NCBI GenBank assembly: GCA_964616985.1
Contig: CAZTVF010000009.1
Location: 2,405 to 66,404 of the forward strand
Direction of reading: 5' to 3'
From: an uncultured Planctomycetaceae bacterium
Lineage (GTDB): Bacteria > Planctomycetota > Phycisphaerae > SM23-33
DNA length: 64,000 nt
Position numbers and translations under genes: made by a program. Under the pieces are notes generated by a model that saw nothing but the letters and a program-made list of their open reading frames with translations, was not told the DNA's origin and did not search any database. Positions 1,957-38,959 of the stretch are shown piece by piece. The stretch's first letter is position 1. Every line of letters starts with the position of its first letter.

Positions 1957-2115
1957 GCGGGCCAATATCGTTGAAACCTTTGGCTGTTGGTTGCGTCCAA
2001 CGTCATAATGGCGGGCGACCTAACAAGTGCGCGGTTGGATCGTCTTCTCTATAGCGGTCGAACTGCGCATGCGGGTGTGACTGACCTTTCGTTCGCGACG
2101 ACAAAGGAGCTTCTG

Positions 2116-10045: not shown

Positions 10046-10145
10046 CGGGCGGACACGTTTTGGGGGAAACAAGCCGCCGCGAGGCGGGTTCAATGTGAAT
10101 CGCACTGTGATACCGTGTCCGTTTCCGTTTCAGCAAGGAAGACGT

Positions 10146-11453
10146 ATGTCGAAACTCGTTCGCTCGTTGGCGTTGTGTGTGATGGCGGCGGTTCTTCTCG
10201 GCGGCTCTGCAGCGCAGGCGGGCTCGCGGCCGGTCGTGGCGATAGTCCAGGGCGACGACGCCAACGTGATGGTCGCCCAGGCCATCGAACTCGTCGGCGG
10301 GCTCAAGGGCATCGTGAAGGACGGCGACCGCGTCGTCATCAAGCCCAACCTCACGTTCTACAACAAGGACAAGGGCATCGTGCCCGGCATGACCACCGAC
10401 GTCCGCGTGGCCGCCGCCCTGGTCGCGGCGCTGCGGAAGAGCGCCAACTGCCAGGTCACCATCGCCGAGTCCAGCGGCGGCAGCACACGGGACATGTACA
10501 AGGCGTACGGCTACGACAAGTTCGCCGCCGAGGCCAACGTGCCGCTGCTGGACCTCAAGGAAGAGCCCCGCGTGCACGTCGAGCGGGAAGGCATGGCCTA
10601 CCCTGCATACGAATTCCCCAAGCCCGTGAAGGACGCCGACGTCTTCATTAACATGCCCGTCCTCAAGACGCACCAGCTCACCGGCATCAGCGTGGGCATG
10701 AAGAATCTCTACGGCCTGCTGGACGGCAGCCGCACCGGCATGCACGAGAAGGCCGACAACGTCCTGAGCGACATGGCCGCGATCCGCCACAACGACCTCA
10801 TCGTTGTCGACGGCCTGGCGGGCATGGAAGGGCAGGGCCCGCTGGAAGGTACGCCGGTGAAGATGAACCTGGTGATCGTGGGCACCGACATCGTCGCCGT
10901 CGACGCCGTCGCCACGGCCGTGATGGGCTTCGACCCCGCGCGCCTCCGTCACCTGCAGATCGCCAAGGCCCGCGGCTTGGGCGAGTGCGACCTGTCGAAG
11001 ATCGAGATTCGCGGCACGGCGATCGAGAAGGTGGCCGTCCGCTTCAAGCCGCCCGCGGCCTTCCCGTACACCTGCCCCAAGACGAAGGAGCAGGCCAGGC
11101 TGCTTGCCCGCGTGGTGGAACTGGAGACCGAGTACCAGAAGCAGGCCCTGGGAAAGGAGCCACGTCTGGGCCAATCGTTCCGGTCGGACATCCTGAAGCT
11201 CGACCCGGTGAAATACCCGCTGATCTGCTCGCGGCCTTTCAGCGTCGACTTCAGCGATGGCAGCAGCTGGCGGGCGAAGGACCACATGCAGTTCAACCTC
11301 ACGTGCGACGCATTCGAGCGGCCGCTGGTGGTGGAGGAGATCAACCGCTGGCTGGCCGATGCGTCGCCGGTGGAGATCGCGCCGCATGCTTTGCCCAAGC
11401 CGCCCGAGCCGAAATCGAAGCCCGCGATGCAGCCCGCCTCGCGGCCGAAGTAG
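10146..11453 (+). CDS. DUF362 domain-containing protein with signal peptide and C-terminal extension
   Basis: VVIKPN, INMPVLKTHQLTGISVGMKNLYG, DGLAGMEGQGP, DIVAVDAVA motifs; hydrophobic N-terminus; AAGGA upstream. Confidence 0.85.
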   Translation: MSKLVRSLALCVMAAVLLGGSAAQAGSRPVVAIVQGDDANVMVAQAIELVGGLKGIVKDGDRVVIKPNLTFYNKDKGIVPGMTTDVRVAAALVAALRKSANCQVTIAESSGGSTRDMYKAYGYDKFAAEANVPLLDLKEEPRVHVEREGMAYPAYEFPKPVKDADVFINMPVLKTHQLTGISVGMKNLYGLLDGSRTGMHEKADNVLSDMAAIRHNDLIVVDGLAGMEGQGPLEGTPVKMNLVIVGTDIVAVDAVATAVMGFDPARLRHLQIAKARGLGECDLSKIEIRGTAIEKVAVRFKPPAAFPYTCPKTKEQARLLARVVELETEYQKQALGKEPRLGQSFRSDILKLDPVKYPLICSRPFSVDFSDGSSWRAKDHMQFNLTCDAFERPLVVEEINRWLADASPVEIAPHALPKPPEPKSKPAMQPASRPK

Positions 11454-11585: not shown

Positions 11586-11711
11586 GGGAGGGGCGAGATG
11601 GCCGTGCCAGGGGCGTCGCACCGGCTTGTCAAAAGCATCACGATGTGATAATCAATTCGCCCTAACGTTCCCCGGTCGATGGTGGTGCATAGTTCGTATC
11701 CAGGAAGAAAC

Positions 11712-13790
11712 ATGACTGATAATGTGTTGCCGTTGCAGGCCCGGATCGTTCCGACGTCCGACGTATCCCAACTCCAGTTCGCCCGCCAGGAGCTCCAGCG
11801 GTTCCTGGCCGCGGGCGGCATCTCGCAGGCCGTGGCCGAGGGGCCCGCGTGGGTGATCGAGCTGCGGGTGGAGGCCACGCTGCCGGCCGGGGCCTTCGCC
11901 GTCCGCCGTGAGCGTCGCGGCGCGGATATCCACGTCACGCTCGCCGGCCACGACGCCACCTGCGTTCTGCATGCCGCCTACACGATGCTCGAGGGGGCGG
12001 GCTGGCGTTTCGAGATCAGCGGCCCGGTGCTGCCCGCGGGCCTGGCGATGGACCGCCTGGCCGAAGGCGATACGCTCATCACGCCCGCGGTGCTGCGCCG
12101 CGGCATCCGCCAGCATATCAACTTCGTGATGGACATCTCCAGCTACCGCCTCGAAGGGGCGAAGGAGTACATGCGGAACCTCGCCCGCATGCGGTTCAAC
12201 CACATCACCTTCCACAGCTACACCAACTTCTGGTTCGAGGCCGCCCTGGAGGACAAGCCCATCCTCGCCGGCGGCTTCTTCTACGGCGTCCGCTACGACA
12301 TCCCCGCCGACGGCATCGTCCGCCAGCACATCCGCGACAACCAGCGGGTCTTCTGCATCCCCGAGATCGAGCCCGCCTACGACGACCCCAGGGAGAAGAG
12401 CCGCCTCGCCGTCGCGTGGCTGGCGGAGCTGATCGCCGAGAGCAAGCGCCTGGGCTTCGGGGTGCAGTTCTCGTTCGAGCCCCGAAACACGCCGATGGCC
12501 TCGTCGCTGAAGATCTGCGACGCGATCCTGCAGCAGTATCCGCAGATCGACGAGCTGGAGATCATCACCAACGAGACGGGCGGCTGGGGCGCGCCCTCCC
12601 CGGTTGACGACGTCCGCCAGGCCATCGCCAAGTACTTCGGCCAGGCCGTCGCGATGGAGCCCGCCGTGGCGAAGTTCATCATTGAAGGCCAGCGGGATAT
12701 GGCCGCCTATTTCGCCGACCTCGGGCACAACATCCAGCTCGTGAACGAACTGCAGAAGCACTGGCGAGGCCGCCGCGCGCCCAAGGTCAGCTGCGGCATC
12801 TACTGCGGCGTGCAGCCTTACCTTCAGTTGTCGGTGATGCTGATGCGGCGGTTCCTGCCGGCGGGCGCGGACTTCGCGATCCTGTCCGGTCACGGCAGCC
12901 GGCGGGTGGCGAACAACATCGCCATCGCAGGCCTGACCACCGAGGACTGGCGGCGGACGATGGTGTACAGCTGGCTGGAATTCGACGGCCTGATGTACCT
13001 GCAGCAGAACGCGGTGCAGGGCATCCGCCGCGTGCTGGAGGGCGTGCGCGACACCGCGGGCCTGGGCAACCTGGGCGGCATCGCGTTCAACCACTGGCGC
13101 ACGGCCGAGAATTGCACGGTCGCCCGCTACGCCGCCGAGGCGACGATCGAAGGCCCCATCGACGAGCGGGCGTTCTACCTTCGCTACGCGGCGGCCCTGG
13201 GCGTGGGCGCCCCCGAAGCGTACGCACAGGCGATGGCGGAGATCGACGAGGCCGACTGGCGCGCGACCGAGGACATGCCCAACGCAGGCTTCTGCGCCGG
13301 GTGGGGCGCCAACGATATGGCCCAGCTTGTGTGGCAGTCCCCGAGCAACGCCGCAAAGGTGCGGGCGCGGTATGAGACGGCGCTGGACCTGCTGCGGCAG
13401 TGCGCTGCGGGCACGCAGTCAGCGGCTGGGCGCGCGTACCTGGCCACGCTGGACAACCGCATCCGCTGCACGATCCTCTACGTCCGGGCGATCGAGAAGG
13501 GCGCCGAGCTGGTCCCGCTGTGCCAGGGGCGGACGGCCGAGCAGTTCACGCCGGCCGAGCGGAACCAGATCGCGGCAATCTGCGAGCACGCGTGTGCCAA
13601 TCTTGATGCATACATGAAGCTCCATGCCACGCTGCTGCCCGACCGCGGCAGCGAGGGCACGCTGATCAGCCTGCATTACTACACGGCCGCGTTCTTTCGC
13701 CGCCTCCGCAAGAACTGGGGCGGCGTCGGCGAGGACGTGCCCGTCCGCGCCACCGGTGAAGACCCGCCGCTGCCGATCATGGTGCAGTAG
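11712..13790 (+). CDS. Hypothetical glycoside hydrolase-like protein (hexosaminidase-type N-terminal domain plus TIM barrel)
   Basis: FARQELQRFL...GAF.VRR...HVTLAGHD...LHAAYTMLE then PAVLRRGI, NLARMRFNHITFH, typical of GH20/GH89/GH115-like architecture; family not resolvable. Confidence 0.6.
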   Translation: MTDNVLPLQARIVPTSDVSQLQFARQELQRFLAAGGISQAVAEGPAWVIELRVEATLPAGAFAVRRERRGADIHVTLAGHDATCVLHAAYTMLEGAGWRFEISGPVLPAGLAMDRLAEGDTLITPAVLRRGIRQHINFVMDISSYRLEGAKEYMRNLARMRFNHITFHSYTNFWFEAALEDKPILAGGFFYGVRYDIPADGIVRQHIRDNQRVFCIPEIEPAYDDPREKSRLAVAWLAELIAESKRLGFGVQFSFEPRNTPMASSLKICDAILQQYPQIDELEIITNETGGWGAPSPVDDVRQAIAKYFGQAVAMEPAVAKFIIEGQRDMAAYFADLGHNIQLVNELQKHWRGRRAPKVSCGIYCGVQPYLQLSVMLMRRFLPAGADFAILSGHGSRRVANNIAIAGLTTEDWRRTMVYSWLEFDGLMYLQQNAVQGIRRVLEGVRDTAGLGNLGGIAFNHWRTAENCTVARYAAEATIEGPIDERAFYLRYAAALGVGAPEAYAQAMAEIDEADWRATEDMPNAGFCAGWGANDMAQLVWQSPSNAAKVRARYETALDLLRQCAAGTQSAAGRAYLATLDNRIRCTILYVRAIEKGAELVPLCQGRTAEQFTPAERNQIAAICEHACANLDAYMKLHATLLPDRGSEGTLISLHYYTAAFFRRLRKNWGGVGEDVPVRATGEDPPLPIMVQ

Positions 13791-13889: not shown

Positions 13890-15527
13890 TCACCCGTTCT
13901 TCGCCGCGATCGCGCCGGTGGGGCAGGCCTCGATGCAGCGGGAGGCGACGCGGGTGAGGGCTTCGGATAAGGGGCGGCCGAAGGGGACGGCGACGCGGAC
14001 GTCGAAGCCCCGGCCGACGAAGGCGAGGCCCAGCGGCTCGCCGGCCTGCTCGGCGATGCGGATGCACAGGCCGCAGTCGATGCACTTGCCGCTCTCGAAG
14101 ACGATCTCCCCGTGCCGCATGTCCTGCTGGTAACTCCGGCGGTGCGTCTTGTAGTGCGCGGGGCGGGCGGCGTACTGCTGGCTGCACTCGCGCAGGCGGC
14201 AGTGGTCGGCCTTGCGGCAGTCGCAGTGTAGGCAGCGGGCCGACTCGGCGGCCGCCTGTTCGCTCGACAGGCCTCGCGTGAGGTCGAAGTGAGGCGGTAG
14301 GCCGGGCGTGGCCTCGAACTCCTCGCCCGACAGGTCGTCGTCCAGGTCGCGCGAGCGGGGCGGGGCGGCCGCGACGGGCAGGCCAGCGAGGAACGTCTCG
14401 ATCTCGCCCTCGTGCAGCAGGCCGATGTGCGTGGAGAATCGCTTCACCGGCCCCGTCACGGGCAGGCCGCTGACATATTGATGCACCGATTCGGCGGCTG
14501 CCTTGCCCGCGGCGACGGCCCGGACGGCCATCGGGTGGTGGCCGCGATGGGTGCCCGTTGCATCGCCGGCGGCGAAGACCCCCGGCGTGGTCGTCGCCAG
14601 TGTTCGGGCATCGGCGGCGATGCCCTTGTCCGACGCCGCCAACCCCAGCCGCTCGCCTTCAACGCGGACGTGGCCGACGGCGACGATCACCGCGTCGAAC
14701 TGCGTCCGCAATTCCTCCAGCGTGGGCGATTGCCCCACGCGAACGCCCAGGCGGAACTCGGCCCCGGCCCGGCGGACCTGCTCGATCTCGGCATCGAGCA
14801 CGCGGCTGGGCAGGCGGCTTTCATCCACGCCGTAGCGCAGCATGCCCCCGGCGTGCTCCTTCTTATCGAACACGGTGCATGCATGTCCCAGCGGCAGCAG
14901 GCGCCAGGCGGCGGCCAGGCCCGCGGGCCCGCTCCCGACGATCGCGATGCGCTTGCCCGTCGCCGCCGCGCGCGGGGGGAGGTAAGGCTGCTCCGAGGCC
15001 AGGTCCGCCTCGGCGACGTACCGCTTCAGCAGGCAGATGGCCAGCGGGCGGTCGGCGGCGCTGCGCCGGCAGCCCTTCTCGCACGGCGCGGGGCAGATGT
15101 AGCCCAGGATCGCCGGCAGCGCGATCTCGCGCTTCACCGTCGCGATGGCCTGGCGCAGGTTGCCCGACGAGATCTGGCGGATCATCAGCGGGATGTCCAT
15201 CTTCGCCGGGCAGATGCCCTGGCAGGGGCCGTCGCAGTCGCCCACGTGGTCGCTCAGCAGCAGTTCCAGCGCCGCGCGCCGGGCCGCGTGAACCTCCGGC
15301 GTCTCGCTTTCCACGCGGAGCCCCTCGGCCGCCGGCGTCGCGCACGCGGGAACGAGCTTGCCGCTGTCGGCGAGCTTCACCAGGCACACCATGCAGGAGG
15401 TGGCGGGCTCCAGGCCCTGCAGGTGACACAGCGTGGGGATGTGCACGCCCAACTGCCGGGCCGCGTCCAGCACCGTCGCGCCGGCGGGCACGTCGATCGT
15501 CCTGTTGTCGATGGTCACGTTGGGCAT
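13890..15527 (-). CDS. Fe-S flavoprotein: HydA/NuoG-type N-terminal [2Fe-2S] domain, GltD-like FAD module, C-terminal [4Fe-4S] (BfuA/NfnA-like subunit)
   Basis: MPNVTIDNRTI..IPTLCH..SCMVC..PACAT; SDHVGDCDGPCQGICP; CPAPCEKGCRR; GSGPAGL; GVFAAGD; RCLHCDC; KCIDCGLC..CPTGA. Real start is ATG 15527 inside the long ORF 13890..17333. Confidence 0.88.
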   Translation of the reverse strand: MPNVTIDNRTIDVPAGATVLDAARQLGVHIPTLCHLQGLEPATSCMVCLVKLADSGKLVPACATPAAEGLRVESETPEVHAARRAALELLLSDHVGDCDGPCQGICPAKMDIPLMIRQISSGNLRQAIATVKREIALPAILGYICPAPCEKGCRRSAADRPLAICLLKRYVAEADLASEQPYLPPRAAATGKRIAIVGSGPAGLAAAWRLLPLGHACTVFDKKEHAGGMLRYGVDESRLPSRVLDAEIEQVRRAGAEFRLGVRVGQSPTLEELRTQFDAVIVAVGHVRVEGERLGLAASDKGIAADARTLATTTPGVFAAGDATGTHRGHHPMAVRAVAAGKAAAESVHQYVSGLPVTGPVKRFSTHIGLLHEGEIETFLAGLPVAAAPPRSRDLDDDLSGEEFEATPGLPPHFDLTRGLSSEQAAAESARCLHCDCRKADHCRLRECSQQYAARPAHYKTHRRSYQQDMRHGEIVFESGKCIDCGLCIRIAEQAGEPLGLAFVGRGFDVRVAVPFGRPLSEALTRVASRCIEACPTGAIAAKNG

Positions 15528-15529
15528 GG

Positions 15530-17884
15530 CTACGTCCCCGATTCCACGCGGATCGCCTCGCGCGGGCACTTGGTGCGGCAGGTGTCGCAGCGGGTGCACT
15601 TCGCCGCGTCGATTTCGTGTTTGCGGTACGGCTGCATCGCGATGGCGGACGCGGGGCAGTGCTGGGCACAGAGCGTGCAGCCGATGCACTCGTCGGTGAC
15701 GACGTAGCGGATGAGCGGCTTGCATCGCCCGGCGGGGCAGCGGCCCTGCAGGTGCGCTTCGTACTCGCTGCGGAAGTGCTTGAGCGTCGAGAGCACGGGG
15801 TTGGGCGCGGTGCGCCCCAGGCCGCACAGGCTGCCCGCCTGCACCTGGCGGGCGAGTTCCTCGAGGCGTTCGAGGTCGCCCTTGCGGCCGCCGCCTTGGC
15901 ACAGCCGCTGCAGGATCTCCAGCATCCGCCGCGTGCCGATGCGGCAGAAGGTGCACTTGCCGCACGACTGATCCTGCGTGAATTCCAGGAAGTAGCGGGC
16001 GATCTCGACCATGCAGTCGGCGTCGTCCAGCACGACCAGCCCGCCGGAGCCCATGATGGCGCCGGCGGCGGTGAGGGCCTCGTAGTCGACCGGCGTGTCG
16101 GCCAGCGCCGCCGGAACGCAGCCGCCCGAGGGCCCGCCGACCTGCACGGCCTTGAACTGCCGCCCGCCGGCAACGCCGCCGCCGATGACCTCGACGATCT
16201 GCCGCAGCGTCATGCCCATGGGGACCTCGATGAGGCCGCCGCGCAGCACCTTGCCGGCCAGGGCGAACACCTTGGTGCCCTTGCTTCGCTGAGTGCCCAG
16301 TGCGGCGAAGGGCTCGCTGCCGTTGCGAAGAATCCAGGGCGTCATCGAGAGCGTCTCGACGTTGTTGATCAGCGTCGGCCGGCCCCGCAGGCCCCGCACC
16401 GCGGGGTAGGGCGGGCGGAAGCGCGGCATGCCGCGGCGGCCCTCGATGGAGGCGATGAGGGCGGTCTCCTCGCCGCAGACGAACGCGCCGGCGCCCTGCA
16501 TGACGCGGAGGTCCAGCGGGCACTCGGCGTTTGAACCGGCCGGGCCCAGGATGCCCGCGTCGCGGCAGCGCCGCAGGGCCTCGGTGACGCGCTCTACGGC
16601 CAGCGGGTATTCCGCGCGGATGTAGAAGCAGCCCTCGGCCGCCCCGACGGCGTAGGCGGCGATGGCCAGGCCCTCGATCAGGCGGTAGGGGTACGACTCC
16701 ATGATCATGCGATCCATGAACGCCCCGGGGTCGCCCTCGTCGCCGTTGGAGATGACGTATTTCGTCTCGCCCGCGGCCGCGCGCACCTGCGACCACTTGA
16801 GGCCGGTGGGGTAGCCCGCGCCGCCGCGCCCCCGCAGGCCGCTGACGGTGATGCGCTCGATCACCTGCGGCGGCGTCAGGTCGCGCAGGCAGCGGCGCAG
16901 GGCCTCGAAACCGCCCAGGCGGATGTACTCGTCGAGGTCCAGCGGATCGATCTCGCCGCCGTGCTCGGTGGCGATATGCCGCTGGCCGTCGAGGAACGCC
17001 CGCACGGGCTCGTCGCGAACGTGCAGGCTGTAGCGGCGGACGCCGTCCCAGCCGTCGTCGGTGAGGATGCGGTCGAGCGCGCGAGAGACCGCGCCCGTCA
17101 ATCGCCGCCGCAGGCCGCCGCGGAAGTGGCGCAGCACGATCTCCTCGGCGTCGGCGGCCTCCACGCGGGCGTACAGGGCGGCGGGGCGGCCCGGCTGGAC
17201 GATCTCCACCAGCGGCGTCTGGTGACACATGCCGACGCAGCCGACGGCCTTGACGGTCGCGGCGATGCCGTTGTGCGTCAGCGTCCGCTCGATGGCGGCC
17301 CGCACCTTGGTGCTGCCGCGCGCCTGGCAGCACGAGCCCATGCCCAGGCGGATCTCGCCGGCGGGCGACGCTGTCGCCTGCGGGCCGCCCGCGGCCGCGG
17401 CGCCGCGCTGCGTCTGCAGCACCAGGAAGTCCTGCAGCACGCCGGGCACGCGGTCGGGCGTGAGGTGGCCGTAGGTCACGTCATCGATCTGGATCACCGG
17501 CGCCAGCGTGCAGCAGCCCAGGCAGGCGACCTTCTGCAGCGTGAAAAGGCCTTCGGCGTCGGTGTCGGCCCCGGCGGGCAGCTTCAGCGCGCGGGCGAGC
17601 GCGTCGTGGATTCCGTCCGAGCCCTTCACGTGGCAGGCCGTGCCGTGGCAGATGCGGATGACGTGCCGCCCCACGGGCTGGTGGCGGAATTGTGTGTAGA
17701 AGGTCGACACGCCGGCTAGGCGGGCGGGCGTGATCTCGCTCAGCGCGCACACGCGCTGCAGGGCCTCGGGCGGCAGCCAGCCGTAGTGGTCCTGGATCGC
17801 CTGAAGCAGCGGGATCGTCGCTTCGGGCCCGCGGCCGATCGAGGCCACCGCCTCGTCGATGAAGCTGAGGTCGATCTCTTTCAA
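15530..17884 (-). CDS. Fused HydC-HydB (NuoE-NuoF-like) NADH/FMN-binding Fe-S flavoprotein
   Basis: TTG start with GGAGG, overlapping the upstream stop (TTGA); IPLLQAIQDHYGWLP, CHGTAC, CLGCC; second thioredoxin-like domain (SCC, GCVGMC); SGLRGRGGAGYPTGLKW; NGDEGDPGAFMDR; GAGAFVCGEETAL; SCGKCTFC..CGLG; C-terminal 2x[4Fe-4S]. Confidence 0.92.
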   Translation of the reverse strand: MKEIDLSFIDEAVASIGRGPEATIPLLQAIQDHYGWLPPEALQRVCALSEITPARLAGVSTFYTQFRHQPVGRHVIRICHGTACHVKGSDGIHDALARALKLPAGADTDAEGLFTLQKVACLGCCTLAPVIQIDDVTYGHLTPDRVPGVLQDFLVLQTQRGAAAAGGPQATASPAGEIRLGMGSCCQARGSTKVRAAIERTLTHNGIAATVKAVGCVGMCHQTPLVEIVQPGRPAALYARVEAADAEEIVLRHFRGGLRRRLTGAVSRALDRILTDDGWDGVRRYSLHVRDEPVRAFLDGQRHIATEHGGEIDPLDLDEYIRLGGFEALRRCLRDLTPPQVIERITVSGLRGRGGAGYPTGLKWSQVRAAAGETKYVISNGDEGDPGAFMDRMIMESYPYRLIEGLAIAAYAVGAAEGCFYIRAEYPLAVERVTEALRRCRDAGILGPAGSNAECPLDLRVMQGAGAFVCGEETALIASIEGRRGMPRFRPPYPAVRGLRGRPTLINNVETLSMTPWILRNGSEPFAALGTQRSKGTKVFALAGKVLRGGLIEVPMGMTLRQIVEVIGGGVAGGRQFKAVQVGGPSGGCVPAALADTPVDYEALTAAGAIMGSGGLVVLDDADCMVEIARYFLEFTQDQSCGKCTFCRIGTRRMLEILQRLCQGGGRKGDLERLEELARQVQAGSLCGLGRTAPNPVLSTLKHFRSEYEAHLQGRCPAGRCKPLIRYVVTDECIGCTLCAQHCPASAIAMQPYRKHEIDAAKCTRCDTCRTKCPREAIRVESGT

Positions 17885-19689
17885 GGTCGGCCTCCGTCTG
17901 CCGCCGCAGGGGCGCCCCCGCCGGGGTTTGCGATGCAGTAGAGGTTCGAGCGTCCGCGGATGAAGATGCGGCCGGGCGCGAAGGCGGGGCTGGCGTGGGC
18001 GCCCTCGGCCAGCTCGCAGCGGCCGACCTCTTTGAACTCCCTGCCGGCGTCGAGGATCAGCATGGTCCCCTTGGTCGAGAGCAGGTAGAGCTTGCCGCCG
18101 GCCAGCGAGGGCGAGGCGTTGAACTCCTGCTTGAGCTCCTGCTCGTACACCTTGTTGCCATCGGCCAGGTCCCAGCACGTCAGCGTGCCGGTGGTGGCGA
18201 GCGTCCAGGCCAGCGTGCCGTCGGTCAGGGGGCTGCAGATGTCGGGTATCGAGCCCTCGGCCTTCCACGCCACGTGCGTCTGCGTCACGTCGCCCGAGCC
18301 GTCCGCGCGCACGGCCGAGAGGGAATTGGCGGCATGCACCGCCAGCACCAGCTCGCCGGTGTAGACGGGCGAGGGGGCCGAGTCGATGCCCATGACCTCC
18401 GCGCGCCACACCTCGGCGCCGTCGGAGAGGTTGTGCGCGATCAGCAGCGGGTTTCCCGCCGCGATGACCAGCGGCTCGGCCGGGCCTTCGATGATGATGG
18501 GCGAGCACCACGACGCGCCGACGTGGCGGGGAATTTCCCACGCGACCTTGCCCGTCGCGGCGTCGTAGGCAATCAGCCGGCTGCCGGCCGCCTCCGCGTC
18601 GCCCTGGTCGAGCTGCACGATGACGCGTCCGTCGCGCAGGTCCAGCGACGAGGCGTAGCCGTACTGGCTGTCGATCTCGCCCAGGCAATGTGACCACTGC
18701 TCGTTGCCCTCGACGTCGAAGCAGGCGATGTCGCCGTTGGCGAAGATGGCCGCGACGTACCGGCCGTCGGTGGCGGCGGTCGATGCGGCCAGGCCCGTGT
18801 CGTCGCGTTCCTTGGGGTGGATGTTCGCGTCGCCCGCGGCCACCACGGCCCGCCGCCACAGCAGCTTGCCGTCGGCGGCGGCGAAGCAGTAGACCTCGCG
18901 TTTGCTCTTGGTGGCGCCGGTGACGAAGACGCGGTCGCCCCAGACGACGGGCGAGTTGAAGCCCGCCAGCGGCACGGGCGACTTCCACAAGATGTTCTTG
19001 CCCGACGGGCCGTCCCACTGGCCGGGGATGTTCTCGAAGGCGGCCACGCCGCTGCCGCCGACGCCTCGGAAGCGGGGCCATTGCCTGGCCATCTCGGCCG
19101 CCGAGGGCGCCGGCAGTGTGGTCGCCGCCGACTTGAGGTTCTTCGGCGCCGCCGTCGGCGCGGGTGTGGCCGCGGGGGCGGCGAGTTCCCGCGGCGCAGC
19201 CCCGGGCCACAGCATCGGCGCCGCGGCAGCACAGGCGAGGAGCATCGCAGCCGTCGCCGCCAGGGCCCATCGCGAACGGCGGCGGGCGGCTGCGAGGTCG
19301 GGCGCCGGCTCGGCCGCGGGCATGGGGAGCTTGCGGCCCAGGACATTCGCGTACGCGCCCGCGGCGATCAGCACCGCGGCCCCGCCCATCAGCAGCCACA
19401 CGCCGCGGCGGACGAGGTCCAGGCGGCGGAAGTACTCCAGCCGCAGGCGCTGGTCGATCGTGCGGATGTCGGCCTTGAGGTTCTCGCTGCGCGGGGTCTT
19501 GGCGAGGTCGGCCCGCAGCTGCCGCAGGCGGGCGTCGTCCAGGGGGTCGGCCAGGTTGGCCCGCACGATGTGATAGGCCATCACGCCGCCGACGACGGCG
19601 CAGAACGCCGCGGCGACCAGGGCGACGCGAACGGCGCATCGGCGTCGCATGGCGGCGGGGCCGGCGAAGGTGGCGGGCGTGTCGGTCAT
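17881..19689 (-). CDS. Membrane-anchored PQQ-like (BamB-type) beta-propeller protein with three N-terminal TM helices
   Basis: WPRFRG, SPVVWGDRVF, DGKLLW and ASP repeats; three hydrophobic segments; ATGA overlap with upstream gene. Confidence 0.85.
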   Translation of the reverse strand: MTDTPATFAGPAAMRRRCAVRVALVAAAFCAVVGGVMAYHIVRANLADPLDDARLRQLRADLAKTPRSENLKADIRTIDQRLRLEYFRRLDLVRRGVWLLMGGAAVLIAAGAYANVLGRKLPMPAAEPAPDLAAARRRSRWALAATAAMLLACAAAAPMLWPGAAPRELAAPAATPAPTAAPKNLKSAATTLPAPSAAEMARQWPRFRGVGGSGVAAFENIPGQWDGPSGKNILWKSPVPLAGFNSPVVWGDRVFVTGATKSKREVYCFAAADGKLLWRRAVVAAGDANIHPKERDDTGLAASTAATDGRYVAAIFANGDIACFDVEGNEQWSHCLGEIDSQYGYASSLDLRDGRVIVQLDQGDAEAAGSRLIAYDAATGKVAWEIPRHVGASWCSPIIIEGPAEPLVIAAGNPLLIAHNLSDGAEVWRAEVMGIDSAPSPVYTGELVLAVHAANSLSAVRADGSGDVTQTHVAWKAEGSIPDICSPLTDGTLAWTLATTGTLTCWDLADGNKVYEQELKQEFNASPSLAGGKLYLLSTKGTMLILDAGREFKEVGRCELAEGAHASPAFAPGRIFIRGRSNLYCIANPGGGAPAAADGGRP

Positions 19690-20981
19690 GCCTTCCCCCT
19701 CACGGCGGCTGGGCCCACCTTGCCGCGGCGGGCGAGCTCGACGGGGCAGGACGCGAAGCAGCGGCCACACGAGACGCAGGTGGAGCGGTCGGCGGCGTAT
19801 TCATCGCGGCGCCGGCGGACGCACAGCGCGATGAGCTTGAGGCCCACGACGAGGCCGACGAAGCCGCCGAAGATCCACGCGCCCTGCTGCACGCGAAGCT
19901 GGATCTCGTTGGCCTCGCGGTGCAGTTCAGCCGCCGGCCGGCCCGTCGCGCGGAAGGCGGCGCTGTTGTCGGCCCGGCCTTGGAGCGCGCCGCTGTCTTC
20001 GAGGAAGATCTGTCGTGAGAGCTGGACGGTGTAGTGCGTCGAGGCCAGCGGCCCGGCCAGCAGCGTGCCGCCGCCCCACGCGCCGCCGGCCACCAGCAGG
20101 GGCAGCAGCACGATCATCGCCGCCAGCGTCCCGCGGCCGGTGCGTCGGGGGACGCTCTGCAGGGTCGGGCGGCGGATGGCGCCGAAAGGGCAGGCGTCTT
20201 CGCAGAGGCGGCAGTTGATGCAATCGTCGGGCGTGATGTTCACGTGCCGCCACGCCAGGCGCGACAGCGGCCGGAGCATCGCCCCGTACGGACAGCCGAA
20301 GCGGCAGTACGGGCGGCCGATGAACATGGCGACGATCACCATCGCCACGCTGTAGACGATCATGTCGGGCGTGCCGCTGAGGCGAAAGACGGTGACGTAG
20401 GGGTCCTGGCGGCAGATGGGGAAGGCGCTGGCGGTGGCGGCCAGCAGCACCGCGCCGCCCAGCAGCACCCACGGCAGGAGCCCCAGCGAATGCTCCAGCC
20501 AGGCCGGCACCTTCAGCGGTCGCAGCAGCACCGCGTCCTGCAGCGCGCCCAGCGGGCAGACGCCCGCGCAGAACGTGCGGCCGAACAGCAGCGTGAACGC
20601 CAGCGGCAGCAGGAAGAAGCCCAGCACCGCCAGCGGCACGGCGTAGTGGGAGTTGAACAGGCCCAGGGCGACGTTCTGGATCGCCCCGATGGGGCACACG
20701 CAGCCGCCGCGGAAGAAGCCCAGGTACGCCAGCGACGCGAGCATCACGACCACCACGCCGCGGCGCGAGCGGCGCTTCAGCGCGAAGTACGTCGCGGCCG
20801 ACAGCGCGGCGGCCAGGACGGCGAGGTCGATGTATTCCCACGCGATCGCACGGGGCGCGGGCGTGGTGGTGTCGGGCAGGCGCTGCCCGTCGGAGAAGTC
20901 GGGCGGCGGGAAACGCTCCACGCCCCACGCGGCCGCGGCCACGGCCGCCAGGGTCGCCAGCACGATGAGTGGTCGCCTCAC
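19686..20981 (-). CDS. Membrane-bound polyferredoxin, NapH/YccM/NosR-C-like 4Fe-4S binding protein
   Basis: GTG start overlapping the upstream stop (GTGA); GCVCP, GRTFCAGVCPLG, GRPYCRFGCPYG, CINCRLCEDACP, CVSCGRCFASCP; multiple TM helices. Confidence 0.88.
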   Translation of the reverse strand: MRRPLIVLATLAAVAAAAWGVERFPPPDFSDGQRLPDTTTPAPRAIAWEYIDLAVLAAALSAATYFALKRRSRRGVVVVMLASLAYLGFFRGGCVCPIGAIQNVALGLFNSHYAVPLAVLGFFLLPLAFTLLFGRTFCAGVCPLGALQDAVLLRPLKVPAWLEHSLGLLPWVLLGGAVLLAATASAFPICRQDPYVTVFRLSGTPDMIVYSVAMVIVAMFIGRPYCRFGCPYGAMLRPLSRLAWRHVNITPDDCINCRLCEDACPFGAIRRPTLQSVPRRTGRGTLAAMIVLLPLLVAGGAWGGGTLLAGPLASTHYTVQLSRQIFLEDSGALQGRADNSAAFRATGRPAAELHREANEIQLRVQQGAWIFGGFVGLVVGLKLIALCVRRRRDEYAADRSTCVSCGRCFASCPVELARRGKVGPAAVRGKA

Positions 20982-21541
20982 TTGCCGGCCTCCTTCAAGC
21001 GGTAGGGCTTGTCGGCGGGCACGCGGGAAAAGGCGCCGGCGGGACAGGCCAGGGCGATCGCGCACTCGTTGCAGTTGATGCACCGGTCGTGCCGCACCTG
21101 GAGGAACAGCGAGCCGTTGCCGAACGCGCCGCAGCCCTTGACGCACTTGCCGCAGCCGATGCACAGGGGCTCGTTGATCGTGTACTGGTAGTAGGGGTCC
21201 TCGACGAACGTTCGGGCGATGGCGCCGGTGGGGCACAGCTGGTTCTCGGCCCCGGTGTTCAGCGTGTTGGGCCGCGGCTCGAAGTAGCCCGTGCACAGCT
21301 CGCAGTAGCCGCACATCGCGTACGCGTGCACGCACTTGACGGCAGAGGGCTTCAAGACGCACCGGGTCGCGCAGTTGCCGCACTGGATGCACTTGTTGGG
21401 GTCCAGCTGCCAGACCGTCCGCGCCTCCGTCGCCCGCGTGGCGAGGAATCCGCCCGCGCCGCCGACGGCGACCAGCCCCGCCCCGCGCAGGCCCTGGCGG
21501 AGAAAGTCGCGACGCGTCAGTTTGGGTTTGGGGTCAGTCAC
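20978..21541 (-). CDS. Tat-signal 4x[4Fe-4S] ferredoxin-type protein
   Basis: AGGAG plus GTG; TRRDFLR twin-arginine motif; CIQCGNCATRC, CGYCELC, CPTGA, CIGCGKCVKGC, CINCNEC..ACP. Confidence 0.88.
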   Translation of the reverse strand: MTDPKPKLTRRDFLRQGLRGAGLVAVGGAGGFLATRATEARTVWQLDPNKCIQCGNCATRCVLKPSAVKCVHAYAMCGYCELCTGYFEPRPNTLNTGAENQLCPTGAIARTFVEDPYYQYTINEPLCIGCGKCVKGCGAFGNGSLFLQVRHDRCINCNECAIALACPAGAFSRVPADKPYRLKEAGK

Positions 21542-21571
21542 GGGTCGATGCTCCTGGAAGAAGAAGACTCG

Positions 21572-22096
21572 ACCACAGAGGCACAGCGCGGGCTGCGCCC
21601 GCAACCCAATTGCGGATTGCGGATTTCGGATTGCGGATTGAAGAGGCCCGGTCCAAGGGTGGGCGCAATGGTGGGCAAGGCCTGTGTCTGCTGCGCCGCC
21701 ACGGACTGTTCAAAACAGATTGGCTCACGACAGCTTCGCGCCATGCCCAAAGGCGACCAGATCGTGGTGCTGGCGCCGGCCATCCAGGAAAGAACATGGA
21801 TAGGATCATCGAGAAAAGAAGGATGTTTCGCGTTTGTGGCACAGAGAACACAAAGAGAAGAAGGAATGATAAAGATGTTACGTGCCCGCGCCGGTGACGC
21901 AGAGGGTGAAGCGCACCGCTGGCGATCGCTCGCGTTTCTGCGCTGTTCGTGCATTAACCGAGTTCGAACAGCGCCGAAAGGCGAGCGATGCCCGGACGCC
22001 GCCGCGTGCGAAACTTGTGTAAGGATGGAAGACTCAATTGCGGTGACGCTTTTCATCCGTTCTTCTTTTCCTCTGTGTTCTCTGCGCCTCTGTGGT
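21572..22096. repeat. Composite palindromic insertion inside the redox operon
   Basis: Outer inverted nonamer-type arms accacagaggcacag / ctctgtgttctctgcgcctctgtggt; heptamer run (t/g)cggatt x4 at ~21612-21640; hairpin 21925-21989. Confidence 0.7.
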
Positions 22097-22313
22097 CCGT
22101 GTTCATTGCTTCTTTCAGTGACATCGCCTGGGGCAGCGCACAATCGCCGAGTGCGGTGCACGACCGGCAGATGAATCTGCCGGTGCAGTCTTGCGAGGGC
22201 AGCGAGGAACGCCGTCCCAGCACGAGGGCGACGGCGGCGATGGCGACGCCGACAGCGCCGCGGGCAACGCCGCGGAGCAGGTTTCGCCGCGAGATGTTGT
22301 CTGTGTGTTTCAT
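22053..22313 (-). CDS. Small (86 aa) Tat-like, membrane-anchored 4-Cys protein
   Basis: ATGA overlap with the NHL gene; MKHTDNISRRNLLR, hydrophobic stretch, then CTGRFICRSCTALGDCALP. Confidence 0.72.
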   Translation of the reverse strand: MKHTDNISRRNLLRGVARGAVGVAIAAVALVLGRRSSLPSQDCTGRFICRSCTALGDCALPQAMSLKEAMNTDHRGAENTEEKKNG

Positions 22314-23359
22314 TTCTTCACGAACACCCGCACGGCTTTCGCCGCCGGGTCCAGGACGTAGATCTTGCCGTCGCGGCCGGCCGCCAGGTCCAGGCCGGTC
22401 ACACCTTCCGTGAAGGCCTCTGTGCCGGCGACGACGCACCGGAAAACGCCGTTGGGATCGTAGACTTTCACGCGGGCCAACCCCTTCTCGCTCGTCACGA
22501 ACGAGCCGTCCGGCAGGATCGCGATGTCCGTCGGGTTGCAGCAGCCGCAAAAGCCTGCGATGTCCGCGTTGTCGAACTGGCCCCACGCCAGTTCCATGTC
22601 GCCGCCGGGCGTGTACGCCTCGATGCGGTGGCGTCCCGGGTTCACGATGCGCAGCAGCGTGTCGCGCCCCATCGCCAGGTCGAAGTGCGGGCTGGGGATC
22701 ACGAAACCATCGGCGTCACGGTTGGGCTCCTTGCCGCCGATCTTGCCCAGGAGCGTGCCCGAATGATCGTATCGCCACACGACGCGGTTGCCGGCGTCGG
22801 CGACGAACATATCCGGATCCAGGCCGCCGCCCAGGGCCACCGACGTGACGCGCGATTTGGCGTCCAGTGCCAGCCGGCCCAACGCGAAGTACTTCCGGTC
22901 TTTGGGGAAATTGTCAGGCAGCTTCCCGTCGATGTACCGGCCGGCGCTGTGCGCGAAGCCGATCAGCAGGTGCCCTCGGGCATCGGCGGCGACGCACAGG
23001 GGCGGCTCGTCGAACTCCAGTGAGAGATAGGCGCTGGCGGCCCCGCCGGGGGCGAAGCCGGCCATTCGCCTGTCGCCGACCACAAGCAGATCGCCATTGG
23101 CATCGATCGCGATCCCGCGGGGCTCGGCCATGCCCGTGTCGATGGGGCCGAGCTCTTTGTAGCCGACTATGTTGGGGTCGGTGACGGCGAGGTTCTTGAT
23201 GTCGTACGACCAGCTGCCGCCCAGGCCGCTGGGGCCAGCGGTGTTCCGCAGGCCCAGGTAGATGCCGACGGCCCCGATGGCGAGCAGGGAGACGACGACA
23301 AAGGCGGTGGCCAGGTGTGCGGGGTTCCTGCGGCGTTTGTTCGGAGGGGTCTCGTTCAT
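22310..23359 (-). CDS. Membrane-anchored NHL-repeat beta-propeller protein
   Basis: ATGA overlap; one N-terminal TM; PRGIAID, MFVADAGNRVV, GFCGCCNPTDIAILPDG, DGKIYVLD. Confidence 0.85.
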   Translation of the reverse strand: MNETPPNKRRRNPAHLATAFVVVSLLAIGAVGIYLGLRNTAGPSGLGGSWSYDIKNLAVTDPNIVGYKELGPIDTGMAEPRGIAIDANGDLLVVGDRRMAGFAPGGAASAYLSLEFDEPPLCVAADARGHLLIGFAHSAGRYIDGKLPDNFPKDRKYFALGRLALDAKSRVTSVALGGGLDPDMFVADAGNRVVWRYDHSGTLLGKIGGKEPNRDADGFVIPSPHFDLAMGRDTLLRIVNPGRHRIEAYTPGGDMELAWGQFDNADIAGFCGCCNPTDIAILPDGSFVTSEKGLARVKVYDPNGVFRCVVAGTEAFTEGVTGLDLAAGRDGKIYVLDPAAKAVRVFVKK

Positions 23360-24957
23360 CGCTGCGATTCCTCCGCCAGGTGGTTTGCTGTGGCCAGATC
23401 GCGGGCAAGTCCAGACGCCGCCGGGCGGCTTGTCCGTTCGGCGCTGTCCGTTGGCGGCACCAGCGCCAGCGGCGACGAACGGATAAGCCGCAGCCAGGAC
23501 TCGAGGCAGAACGTTGTCGAGGGCGAGACGCCAGCGCCACGGATCAAGGCCGCGGCCCCGCCATCGGCCAGCTCCACGCACGCCATTTGCGTCAGGTCGC
23601 GGACGAGCAGCCGCCCGCCGAGTAGCGCCATAGGGCCCCACGAATCGTGGCCGTCGAGGATCTTCGCCTGGGCCAGCTGCTTGTAGCCCGCGGGCGAGGC
23701 GACGGCCATCGTCAGCACGGCGGCGTCGTTCACGACCAGGATCTTCCCATCGGCGATCATGAAGGGGCCGATGCCGAAGCGGTTGGCCGCCCCGCTGGTC
23801 CAGGCGATCTTGCCGTCGAGGCCCAGGCACACCAGTTCGCCCGAGGGCCTGACGTTGTAGAGGTAGCCGTCGTAATAGATCGGCGTGTGCTGCGTGGCGC
23901 CGAAGACGTCGGCTTCCAGCCGCCACAGCGTCTTGACGGCGAACTTGCCGCCGGCCTCGGCGACCTGGATCATCATGCTGCCGGCGTTGTAGCCGCCCGA
24001 GAGCAGGATGCGGCCCTGGGGCAGCACGACGGGCGTGGCCACCGCGGCGATGGGCACCTTCCAGTCGGGGCATTCCCACAGGACGCTGCCGTCGTTGGCG
24101 TCGATGCCCGCCACTCCGCCCGAGCCGCTGTAGACGTAGGTGCGGCGGCCGGCGATTTCCATCGGGGCGATGGACGTGTGCGTCATCGACCAGCCGTTCG
24201 GATTGGGCGCCTTCCACAGCACCTGCCCGGTGTGCAGGTCCGCCGCCAGCATGAGCACCGAGGGGCCCGCCGGGGCGAGGATGACGCGGTTGCCGTCGAT
24301 GAGCGGGCACTGCCCGGCGTACCACGGCGGCACGACCGTGCGGAACTGGCGGACGAGGTCCATCGACCAGCGAAGCTCGCCGCTGTTGGCGTCGAGGCAC
24401 ACGACGTGGCCCTTGGGCCCCAGCGTCACCACGCAGCCTTGGGCGACGGCGGGCACGGTGCGACTCATGCCGTGGTTGCGTTTGATCGCCACGTCGTAGG
24501 CGAATCGCCAGATCTCCCTGCCGTCATCCAGCGACAGGCAGCGGACGGCATCGGCCTGGTTCTCGCGGTCGTAATCGATCAGGTACACGCAGCCGCCTTC
24601 GACGGCGGGGCCTGCGTGGCCTTCGCCCAGTTCGATCTGCCAGAGCTTTCGCGGCCCGCCCGGCGGCCAGGCCGGGGCGAGCGGGGGCGCGTCATGGGCG
24701 ATGCCGTCGAGCGCCGCCCCCCGGAAGCAGGGCCAGCGGCCGGCGAAGGTGGAGGGCCTGCCGTCGCCGGGGGTCAGTCGGCCGGCAAGGGGCCGGGCCG
24801 CCGGCTGGGACGCCGCCGTTACGCCGATCTGGTCGGTGCCCGGCACGCGCGCGAGGATCGCCTGGGCCGGCGGCGCCTGCAGCCAGGCCGCCACCGCGGC
24901 GACCCCAAGCACCGCCGCAATGGCGGGAATGATCTTGTACAGGAGCGGCTCGCGCAT
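23356..24957 (-). CDS. Exported/anchored PQQ-like (BamB-type) beta-propeller protein
   Basis: Signal/TM segment; WPCFRG, DGREIW, SGELRW, TGQVLW, WGPMAL..GRLLVRD repeats. Confidence 0.87.
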   Translation of the reverse strand: MREPLLYKIIPAIAAVLGVAAVAAWLQAPPAQAILARVPGTDQIGVTAASQPAARPLAGRLTPGDGRPSTFAGRWPCFRGAALDGIAHDAPPLAPAWPPGGPRKLWQIELGEGHAGPAVEGGCVYLIDYDRENQADAVRCLSLDDGREIWRFAYDVAIKRNHGMSRTVPAVAQGCVVTLGPKGHVVCLDANSGELRWSMDLVRQFRTVVPPWYAGQCPLIDGNRVILAPAGPSVLMLAADLHTGQVLWKAPNPNGWSMTHTSIAPMEIAGRRTYVYSGSGGVAGIDANDGSVLWECPDWKVPIAAVATPVVLPQGRILLSGGYNAGSMMIQVAEAGGKFAVKTLWRLEADVFGATQHTPIYYDGYLYNVRPSGELVCLGLDGKIAWTSGAANRFGIGPFMIADGKILVVNDAAVLTMAVASPAGYKQLAQAKILDGHDSWGPMALLGGRLLVRDLTQMACVELADGGAAALIRGAGVSPSTTFCLESWLRLIRSSPLALVPPTDSAERTSRPAASGLARDLATANHLAEESQR

Positions 24958-34493: not shown

Positions 34494-34530
34494 AGCAGTA
34501 GCTCTCCTTCCGCACACAGGAATCGGCCAG

Positions 34531-34583
34531 AGGCTATGCATGCTATGCGCCGAGGTCAACCGACTCAAACCATGATTGGTTTG
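34531..34583 (-). promoter_or_regulatory. Putative sigma70 promoter TTGACC-17-TAGCCT with upstream palindromic operator CAAACCA-N4-TGGTTTG
   Basis: -35 at 34559-34554, -10 at 34536-34531, inverted repeat at 34566-34583. Confidence 0.5.
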
Positions 34584-34764
34584 GATTCGATGGTTGCGAT
34601 GATGTGGTGCCATGCGGGACTCGCGTCGGACGGCGTCATCGCGTTCCACTGCGCTGCGAGCGACGCAATGCCTTTGCCGTGTCACCGCGGTTTCCTTCCG
34701 GGTTCAGCCCTCGTGCACAATGGCACTCGTCCGGCAAGGGGATGGACCCAGAAATGGATCATAC

Positions 34765-38863: not shown

Positions 38864-38959
38864 ATCCCCTCCCGCCCGAAACTCCCTTGAGTCGCGGCGG
38901 GTTTAAGGGTACGCTGGGCTTCCCGTAAATTTCCGTCCACCCATGAGAAAGGACCTACG

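Follow-up and report, generated by a model that had tools for sequence, protein, structure and literature searches.

Enzymes of the Bfu family have modular cores that are combined with varied third modules. Some of the resulting complexes (Nuo-Bfu, Mbh-Bfu) are predicted to be membrane-bound, and 17 BfuB clades have no assigned function (Schut 2022, PMC9304861; this and the other articles are cited for the sections that our searches covered). The known Nfn and Stn enzymes are soluble (PMC12018979, PMC10482914). NapH-like proteins have been described as modular transmembrane units, which in the sections covered are paired with the propeller enzymes NosZ, NirS and ExaA in flavinylation-associated clusters only (Meheust 2021, PMC8238504); NuoF-like partners are mentioned there for MsrQ-like systems only. 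Here we analyse a stretch of 64,000 nucleotides (nt) from an uncultured Planctomycetaceae bacterium (contig CAZTVF010000009.1 of assembly GCA_964616985.1; hereafter the window), in which eight genes, g1 to g8, bring a Bfu-type module together with a NapH-like membrane protein and periplasmic propellers. We consider it probable that their products form one membrane-tethered Bfu-type machine, which would pass electrons outward through a NapGH-like iron-sulphur (Fe-S) relay to the propellers. An initial annotation of the window, made from its letters, had suggested a dedicated trans-membrane conduit, and this is now supported by synteny in at least two phyla and by a chain of natural fusions. It also knew of no characterised complex with this composition, and none turned up in the literature that we searched, including the covered sections of PMC9304861, PMC8238504 and PMC11266412. 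Likewise, full-text searches found no description of the cluster, supplementary tables lying outside their coverage.

The G+C content of the window is high (0.62-0.73) and long spurious open reading frames (ORFs) are consequently frequent. Strand and frame were assigned from the pattern of G+C at the three codon positions (GC1/GC2/GC3), which from 13890 to 24957 singled out one coding frame for every stretch, always on the minus strand. Starts were placed using candidate start codons, upstream purine runs resembling ribosome-binding sites and the extent of ortholog alignments. The eight genes that result (Table 1) are joined by five 4-bp start/stop overlaps (ATGA at g1/g2, g2/g3 and g5/g6, GTGA at g4/g5 and TTGA at g6/g7), and a 2-bp gap separates g7 from g8. 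These calls match exactly the co-oriented genes and junctions first reported, and the domain labels given to the eight proteins agree with Pfam and NCBIfam. No hydrogenase, molybdenum cofactor (Moco), Rnf or Nuo membrane subunit had been seen, and we found none among the eight genes and the nine flanking ORFs scanned. Transmembrane (TM) segments were located with a Kyte-Doolittle hydropathy scan, which counts eight in g5, three in g6 and a single N-terminal anchor in each of g1, g2 and g3.

Table 1. Genes of the cluster and the spacer within it; positions are those of the window. Tat, twin-arginine translocation; aa, amino acids.
Feature	Position	Strand	Description
g1	23356-24957	-	PQQ_2 propeller, 533 aa
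g2	22310-23359	-	NHL propeller, 349 aa
g3	22053-22313	-	Small Tat-like 4-Cys protein, 86 aa
Spacer g3/g4	21542-22052	strandless	511 bp, short dispersed repeats, not part of the machinery
g4	20978-21541	-	Tat ferredoxin, 187 aa, GTG start
g5	19686-20981	-	NapH-like membrane polyferredoxin, 431 aa
g6	17881-19689	-	3-TM PQQ_2 propeller, 602 aa
g7	15530-17884	-	HydC-HydB (NuoE+NuoF; BfuC::BfuB) fusion, 784 aa, TTG start
g8	13890-15527	-	Fer2_4 + GltD-like, BfuA-like subunit, 545 aa

Genes that stand apart in the window are fused in other organisms. A NapH-like protein and HydC form one ORF of 548-572 aa in four genomes (loci L022, L023, L024 and L025), and 20 of the best 120 protein clusters listed (P0001-P0020) carry PF12801 and PF01257 in one protein. 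Because its partner in these fusions is the cytoplasmic HydC, the C-terminus of g5 must lie in the cytoplasm, as the hydropathy scan also predicts. Of 29 proteins that are related to g4 and longer than it, most join a g4-like ferredoxin to PF12801, and some of them are named as Bacteroidota. One such fusion, P0124, aligns to g5 over 412 residues at 41% identity and bears at its N-terminus a g3-like hydrophobic stretch with a CX5CX2CX5C motif. The window itself contains the HydC::HydB fusion in g7. On the periplasmic side P0150 (772 aa) is a g1::g2 fusion, 43% identical to g1 over 494 residues and with the CCNP motif of g2 in its NHL part. As read from these domain assignments, g3, g4, g5, BfuC and BfuB are linked into one chain and g1 is linked to g2. 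The two groups appear to be tied to each other only by synteny across phyla, together with translational coupling and the co-occurrence of g6 with a TM hairpin of g5 that is described below.

The arrangement of the genes is conserved far beyond chance. Matches to g5 at E <= 0.001 were found in 33 of the 41 genomes searched, its own included, and the order is kept in 20 loci cut from these. In species-representative genomes 375 stretches encode a g5 relative, and we counted neighbours in the best 80 of them, using only loci with enough flanking sequence. On this basis g4 accompanies g5 in 74/74 loci, g2 in 63/67, g1 in 55/61, g6 in 71/73, g7 in 61/62 and g8 in 51/53, and all six are present together in 40 of 47. 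Several of the missing neighbours have been displaced by insertions (e.g. L073, L086). Nearly all of these 80 loci are titled as metagenome-assembled genomes of Planctomycetota (Pirellulales, Thermoguttaceae, Phycisphaerae, Sedimentisphaerales). Four bear other titles (L043, L064, L081 and L085; Aminicenantes, Poribacteria, Anaerolineales and Zipacnadia), and their genes are 49-55% identical to those of the window; mis-binning, mislabelling or transfer could account for these titles. A set of 80 metagenome loci was found with P0117, a protein assigned to Bryobacterales by NCBI. In these the Acidobacteriota-like order is g1-g2-g4-g5(short)-HydC-HydB-g8, a seven-gene core without g3 and g6, and five such loci have flanks unrelated to one another. 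Conservation of the order, on which the conduit proposal had been made to depend, therefore holds in the 20 loci of relatives, the 80 of the genome collection and the 80 from metagenomes. Three architectures can be distinguished. All genes are separate in the Acidobacteriota-like form (A), and g5 is fused to HydC in some genomes of the class Phycisphaerae (B). The form of the window (C) has g3 and g6 added, an extra TM hairpin in g5, HydC fused to HydB and a g8 without its NAD(P)H subdomain. At one locus, L194, a hemerythrin gene and an SMC gene follow in the place of the Bfu genes.

Pfam places in g7 two PF01257 domains (the first at residues 10-152), PF01512 at 346-513, PF10589 at 627-711 and Fer4_21 at 730-779, and the 2Fe-2S ferredoxin model NF041613 covers residues 184-257. 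This amounts to two thioredoxin-like [2Fe-2S] domains, a flavin mononucleotide (FMN)/NADH site, a [4Fe-4S] site and a C-terminal 2x[4Fe-4S] domain, and matches the full layout of BfuC plus BfuB. The motif cysteines are kept in at least 98% of 64 orthologs. By its domains, then, g7 has the features of the BfuBC core of the Bfu family. Its best solved relatives are 9bov_B (E 6.7e-211), NfnB 9n5u_B and Stn 8oh5_B, and residues 177-781 match BfuB chains at E 1e-202 to 1e-211. It may belong to one of the 17 BfuB clades that PMC9304861 leaves unassigned.

The partner subunit g8 contains a [2Fe-2S] domain, a GltD-type two-cluster domain, a Rossmann domain for flavin adenine dinucleotide (FAD) and further Fe-S motifs, and scores 442.8 bits with PRK12814 against a cut-off of 916. 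It is similar to the NfnA/StnA chains at residues 5-288, ~421-501 and 546-674. In its alignment to 9bov_A, the match skips 289-420 of that chain and ends at 674 of 1178, and its Pyr_redox_2 match covers only profile positions 222-286 of 291. Judged from these alignments, the NAD(P)H subdomain (~130 aa) has been deleted and the formate-dehydrogenase/NuoG-like C-terminal half of NfnA is missing. The earlier label of a HydA-N/GltD hybrid is therefore borne out in its domains, and has to be amended in that the GltD-like part lacks the NAD(P)H subdomain and with it an NADPH site. All 58 planctomycete g8 ORFs compared are 495-578 aa long, against 652 aa for the ortholog of L025, which has a complete Pyr_redox_2 domain (positions 2-288 of 291). 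An insert the size of the subdomain is present in 20/20 Acidobacteriota-like loci. The FAD domain is itself gone from the orthologs of L015, L029 and L032 (3 of the 20 relatives' loci). Taken with the loss of the NAD(P)H subdomain, this indicates that the site for a soluble substrate can be dispensed with even as the genes stay linked to those for the membrane proteins. In the window the Fe-S chain would end in a g8 flavin without a nucleotide site.

Among known enzymes the g7/g8 pair is, by sequence and domain layout, closest to the NfnABC/Stn transhydrogenases (9bov, 9n5u, 8oh5). Here g7 resembles the BfuB chains with a BfuC domain in front, and g8 resembles the N-terminal half of NfnA/StnA. 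The cluster differs in that its BfuC is fused to BfuB, or to a membrane protein in other genomes, and in that its Bfu genes are embedded among membrane and periplasmic ones. With the Nuo-Bfu and Mbh-Bfu complexes it shares a BfuABC-type module inside a cluster of membrane subunits. However, those have ion-pumping complex-I or Mbh arms (PMC9304861, covered sections), and here we find a NapH-like polyferredoxin and a periplasmic output, with no Nuo or Mbh subunit.

The putative relay consists of g4 and g5. A TRRDFL twin-arginine motif and matches to several Fer4 families (Pfam) identify g4 as a predicted Tat-signal periplasmic polyferredoxin of NapG-like layout. Its 17 cysteines kept in at least 99% of 72 sequences are enough for four [4Fe-4S] clusters. 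It scores 16 bits with the NapG model NF007012 (cut-off 269) and is 26% identical to E. coli NapG over 120 aa (BLASTP). In g5, PF12801 matches twice. This protein scores 42.8 bits with the NapH/MauN model TIGR02163 (cut-off 213) and 37.8 with PRK09477 (cut-off 234), and is 30% identical to E. coli NapH over 53 aa. Fifteen cysteines are invariant in 69 g5 sequences. They fall into two CX3CP motifs, two CX2CX2CX3CP ferredoxin motifs that are split by a TM hairpin, and a set of C94, C96 and C190 together with D193. The predicted topology puts the CX3CP and ferredoxin motifs inside and the C94, C96, C190 and D193 set on the outer face. A search of the PDB returned no g5 relative beyond Fer4 motifs. 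The NosR model gives 39.4 bits against a cut-off of 1000, and Pfam finds no FMN-binding domain in g5 or its neighbours. The same genome encodes one more NapH-like paralog (L114; G000:C29:20340-20975; E 1.8e-6 to g5), which is shorter and lacks the GCxCP and CxxDP motifs of g5.

The likeness to NapGH thus lies in the combination of a Tat four-cluster ferredoxin with a membrane protein bearing two CX3CP and two cytoplasmic ferredoxin motifs, and in the order of the genes, ferredoxin before membrane protein, as in E. coli napG-napH. The differences are four extra TM segments and the invariant outer-face Cys3-Asp set of g5, E. coli NapH having no cysteine at these positions, and there is no NapA, NapB or NapC among the cluster genes and the flanking ORFs scanned. 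Like the NapH-like extracytosolic systems of PMC8238504 (NosR-NosZ, PceC and NirS/ExaA types), the cluster uses a PF12801 Fe-S protein as a modular link to what may be an extracytoplasmic propeller enzyme. However, the covered sections define those systems by an FMN-binding domain that ApbE flavinylates, and this cluster has no such domain. They name no cytoplasmic donor, whereas in this cluster a Bfu-type NADH module adjoins and is sometimes fused. None of the cluster's propellers belongs to NosZ, NirS or ExaA. A nos, nap or mau cluster was ruled out, there being no NosZ/NosD, NapA/B/C or MauG-type gene. The mau cluster combines a propeller subunit, a small Cys-rich Tat-type subunit, the NapG-like MauM and the NapH-like MauN. 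To our knowledge mau clusters have no NADH module. Moreover, mature g3 is without tryptophan, and no mauG-, mauE- or mauD-like gene is present in the cluster or the scanned flanks.

On the periplasmic side, g1 is predicted to be a membrane-anchored eight-bladed propeller of the PQQ_2/BamB-like kind (PF13360, 104.5 bits), and g6 carries the same family (92.6 bits) on a three-TM N-terminal region. The N-termini of g1 and g6 are TM anchors. We ruled out either protein as BamB or as a quinoprotein, their scores lying under the family cut-offs: PF01011 (PQQ) gives 24.8 bits for g1 and 17.2 for g6 (cut-off 26.7), TIGR03300 (BamB) gives 48.2 and 53.5 (cut-off 285), and the quinoprotein model TIGR03075 gives ~22 (cut-off 480). 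No pqqC match was found in the organism's genome (92% complete), although control genomes were equally silent. A profile search of the PDB returned for g1 only BamB, designed propellers, weakly a quinoprotein alcohol dehydrogenase, and tetrathionate hydrolase; the last match (partial, E 7e-6) was set aside as repeat-level likeness. Across 34 Acidobacteriota-like and 54 planctomycete sequences, nine residues of g1 (D128, H162, R166, Y213, Q216, N252, H260, Y323 and R453) are conserved at 98% or more each, and the periodicity of the motifs suggests that several of them precede the first strand of successive blades. The active sites of propellers usually lie ahead of the blades' first strand. Orthologs of g1 are typically 463-480 aa long. 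The window's g1 continues for ~65 aa past their ends (23356-23560) in a tail of low complexity that is not conserved and runs to the ATGA overlap with g2.

The second propeller, g2 (Pfam NHL), is predicted to be membrane-anchored, periplasmic and six-bladed, with an invariant vicinal Cys-Cys pair. Its AlphaFold2 (AF2) model has a mean pLDDT of 89.5 and a pTM of 0.89, and its fold neighbours in Foldseek are generic TRIM-NHL and PAL propellers; fold and profile searches for catalytic relatives of g1 and g2 gave only generic propellers. Seven of its residues (C273, C274, N275, E291, K292, K298 and D337) are kept in 46/46 and 66/66 sequences of the two phyla, and the CCNP motif in 52/52 metagenome matches. 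The Cys pair might form a redox-active disulfide, or might serve as a ligand to a metal or to sulphur.

Two genes are specific to the planctomycete form of the cluster. One of them is g6, which is absent wherever g5 lacks the TM7-TM8 hairpin (L022-L026 and the metagenome loci). The other is g3, in which a twin-arginine motif and a single hydrophobic segment accompany a CX5CX2CX5C-x-LP motif, and of which only the signal part weakly matches the Tat-target region model TIGR02811. A g3-like ORF lies between g2 and g4 at 60 of 71 loci, with the 5-2-5 Cys spacing in 54 of the 60; the Acidobacteriota-like loci are without it and have a g2-g4 gap of ~25 nt. We take its Cys motif to be close to the CX6CX2CX5C [4Fe-4S] motif of endonuclease III.

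The organism's own genome encodes three [FeFe]-hydrogenase loci, one [NiFe]-hydrogenase, two RnfD/NqrB-type genes, NuoH-type genes, a weak cytochrome bd match and an MqnA-like gene. This gene set reads as the profile of an anaerobe with several NADH/ferredoxin routes.

Taken together, these data suggest the following path, provided that the sites are occupied by the cofactors their motifs imply. NADH would be oxidised in the cytoplasm at the FMN of g7. The Fe-S chain would be prolonged by g8, which, because its NAD(P)H subdomain is lost, should have no soluble third substrate of its own. The g7/g8 module would dock on the cytoplasmic 2x[4Fe-4S] domain of g5, and electrons may cross the membrane purely via the Cys-bound centres of g5, from an inner four-Cys site formed by the two CX3CP motifs to the outer Cys3-Asp site. 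From there they would pass to the exported four-cluster g4 and, in planctomycetes, also to g3 as a one-cluster mini-protein, and would end at g1 and g2, the anchored propellers. A third propeller, g6, is specific to one lineage and may be held to g5 by its extra TM helices. A periplasmic substrate would then be reduced at the Cys-Cys pair of g2, at the His/Arg/Gln site of g1, or at both. Binding of the propellers to the Fe-S proteins, and the presence of a redox centre on them, are inferred from synteny, translational coupling, the co-occurrence of g6 with the g5 hairpin, and the invariant Cys-Cys and His residues.

A bolder version of this outward path, which we regard as unlikely, has the cytoplasmic 2x[4Fe-4S] domain of g5 stand in for soluble ferredoxin where low-potential electrons leave the Bfu core. 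Bifurcation would then export low-potential electrons (~-450 mV or lower) along an all-Fe-S wire to the Cys-Cys/His site of the propellers. One candidate for the reaction served, a speculation that we draw from cultured anaerobic planctomycetes, is the reduction of elemental sulphur or polysulphide. If correct, this would be the first case of electron export driven by bifurcation, and would allow a difficult periplasmic reduction. It would also mean that a module of respiratory type has been overlooked in groups whose metabolism is described as strictly fermentative (PMC11266412, covered sections).

Several observations weigh against a single outward machine. The folds of g1 and g2 resemble only non-redox or generic propellers; both the contact of the propellers with g4 and g5 and their redox activity are putative, and no fusion of a propeller to an Fe-S protein was found (0/29 long g4 relatives and 0/3 of g2), a search of long proteins being weak evidence for absence. 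The canonical role of NapH is quinol oxidation, and in a genome with an MqnA-like gene this makes a quinone step possible. The membrane module can also exist without an adjacent Bfu module, since g1-g2-g4-g5 occur without adjoining Bfu genes in L026 (G030:C10), L194 and L098. In the Acidobacteriota-like form g8 keeps the NAD(P)H-sized insert (20/20), and the cytoplasmic part of that form might therefore work as a full Nfn-type transhydrogenase whose third substrate is soluble. In the window itself, the 511-bp repeat spacer parts g1-g3 from g4-g8, such that there is no unbroken chain of overlaps through all eight genes, and the TM topology comes from the hydropathy scan alone. In favour of the machine, contigs identical to the window were found in two RNA libraries made from a single sample; they reach into each of the eight genes and span the g8/g7 and g6/g5 junctions, a weak hint of expression. 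However, these may be DNA carry-over, the libraries having no silent-stretch control. Bins 18308-19459 (part of g6) and 22916-23299 (part of g2) have no cover in these libraries, though contigs cannot show absence.

The same machine might run inward, with the propellers oxidising a periplasmic donor and passing electrons through g4 and g5 to a Bfu core that reduces NAD+ and/or ferredoxin, possibly with bifurcation, and NADP+ too where the site is kept. The anatomy is symmetrical as to direction. Moreover, Bfu enzymes are reversible, their third substrates being typically low-potential donors such as H2, formate and NADPH (PMC9304861, PMC12018979), and NapH-like modules have been proposed for oxidases as well as reductases (PMC8238504), each in the sections covered. 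We nevertheless think inward flow unlikely. Fold and profile searches brought up no BamB-like or NHL propeller that oxidises a low-potential periplasmic donor. PQQ-type chemistry would be too high in potential for NAD+, and the PQQ family tests fail in any case. In addition, the organism's own hydrogenases and RnfD/NqrB-type genes already handle NADH and ferredoxin, which fits a fermenter in need of sinks, not sources. Alternatively, g5 could handle quinol and quinone in the manner of NapH. The Bfu module would then transfer electrons from NADH (plus ferredoxin) to menaquinone, and the quinol pool would supply the propellers and the periplasmic ferredoxin, with the membrane crossed by more than Fe-S centres. 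Quinone has been predicted as a Bfu third substrate (Schut 2022, PMC9304861, covered sections). The four-helix core, the two CX3CP motifs and the two cytoplasmic ferredoxin motifs that g5 shares with NapH would suit this arrangement, as would the MqnA-like gene, the NuoH-type complex in the genome and the clusters without adjoining Bfu genes (L026, L194). However, the score of g5 lies far under the NapH cut-off (42.8 vs 213 bits), it has the extra invariant outer-face Cys3-Asp set that E. coli NapH lacks, and the tight fusions on both faces of the membrane (g4::g5, g5::HydC) suggest a continuous relay. A quinone-coupled enzyme therefore seems to us quite unlikely.

It is also conceivable that the Fe-S relay is real and the propellers are non-catalytic, so that they would scaffold the complex, bind substrate or assist assembly in the way of BamB or NosR accessory proteins. 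The acceptor would then be another, for example an insoluble mineral in contact with g4 or a carrier dissolved in the periplasm. The closest relatives of g1, g2 and g6 are indeed BamB, TRIM-NHL and designed proteins, and no cofactor-binding family in Pfam or NCBIfam was matched. This we judge very improbable, given that polar residues strictly kept in two phyla (Cys-Cys-Asn, Glu-Lys and Lys of g2; two His, Arg, Gln, Asn and Tyr of g1) suit an active site better, and that no partners of g4 and g5 are more constant than g1 and g2, which P0150 carries as one fused protein. Finally, g7 and g8 may encode a soluble Nfn-like enzyme that is independent of the NapGH-like periplasmic system of g1-g6 and merely lies beside it. 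Loci with the membrane and periplasmic genes and no Bfu genes do exist (L026, L194, L098), and the spacer already splits the cluster of the window once. Yet mere adjacency is contradicted by the NapH-like::HydC fusions of four genomes and 20 protein clusters. The neighbourhood is, moreover, kept in two phyla with differing flanks, g6 and g7 overlap by 4 bp, and g8 has lost its NAD(P)H site, leaving this reading scarcely credible.

If a single outward machine is correct, NapH-like transmembrane transfer gains a defined cytoplasmic donor module and the Bfu family gains a periplasmic output. The Cys-Cys NHL propeller and the His-bearing propeller would together constitute a periplasmic redox enzyme of a new kind, and its substrate could be searched for directly. 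Relatives of g5 are widespread, with at least 375 stretches in species-representative genomes, and 1895 NapH-like proteins of a 5.8-billion-protein collection match the fused L024 form at E <= 1e-20, a broader set whose cluster context has been partly checked. The carrier lineages are abundant in sediments, peat and soil, and include Planctomycetota orders in which a survey of genomes detected no anaerobic-respiration genes, one of them called strictly fermentative (PMC11266412). In its covered sections that Phycisphaerae survey reports no respiration genes in one anaerobic group, describes the Sedimentisphaerales as strictly fermentative and makes no mention of the cluster. On the outward reading, models of carbon flow in which these groups figure as pure fermenters would overlook an electron outlet.

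The spacer between g3 and g4 has no codon-position GC signal, and an Rfam scan at the gathering score found no family in it, so that it holds no described RNA. Searched against the organism's own genome it gives 52 matches at E <= 0.001. One is the query stretch itself, and the other 51 are partial (24-97 nt) and dispersed genome-wide, some on both strands at one place. One repeat unit, at ~356-456 of the query, is matched by both strands at the same places, like a palindromic element of the REP (repetitive extragenic palindromic) type, and a second is a AATCCGCAATCCG-type run near 21610-21660. In the window g4 lies 768 nt from g2 when g3 is counted in, and the corresponding median in relatives is ~250 nt. 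This excess and the repeat units point to a local repeat insertion into an otherwise compact operon.

The stretch was found in freshwater metagenomes of three studies. In one DNA run (X2), bins 16388-16771 and 21380-21763 have a summed contig depth of ~210, against ~10 elsewhere; these peaks probably stem from other organisms, whose contigs would be drawn in by the dispersed repeats and the conserved NuoF core.

The flanking genes of the window and of the five Acidobacteriota-like loci are unrelated housekeeping genes and give no functional hint. The gene after g8 in the window, on the opposite strand at 11679-13790, matches no Pfam family. In many planctomycete loci (L037, L040, L044, L045, L047, L048, L052 and others) one or two g1-like propeller genes, 25-32% identical to g1, directly follow g8; the window has none there. 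A DUF362 gene (10095-11453, plus strand) and a B12-binding radical S-adenosylmethionine (SAM) gene (33063-34703, minus strand) lie near the cluster, whose conservation they do not share. The plus strand also has two very long ORFs, at 1975-8499 and 38891-43087 (2175 and 1399 codons from stop to stop), both with a good coding signal.

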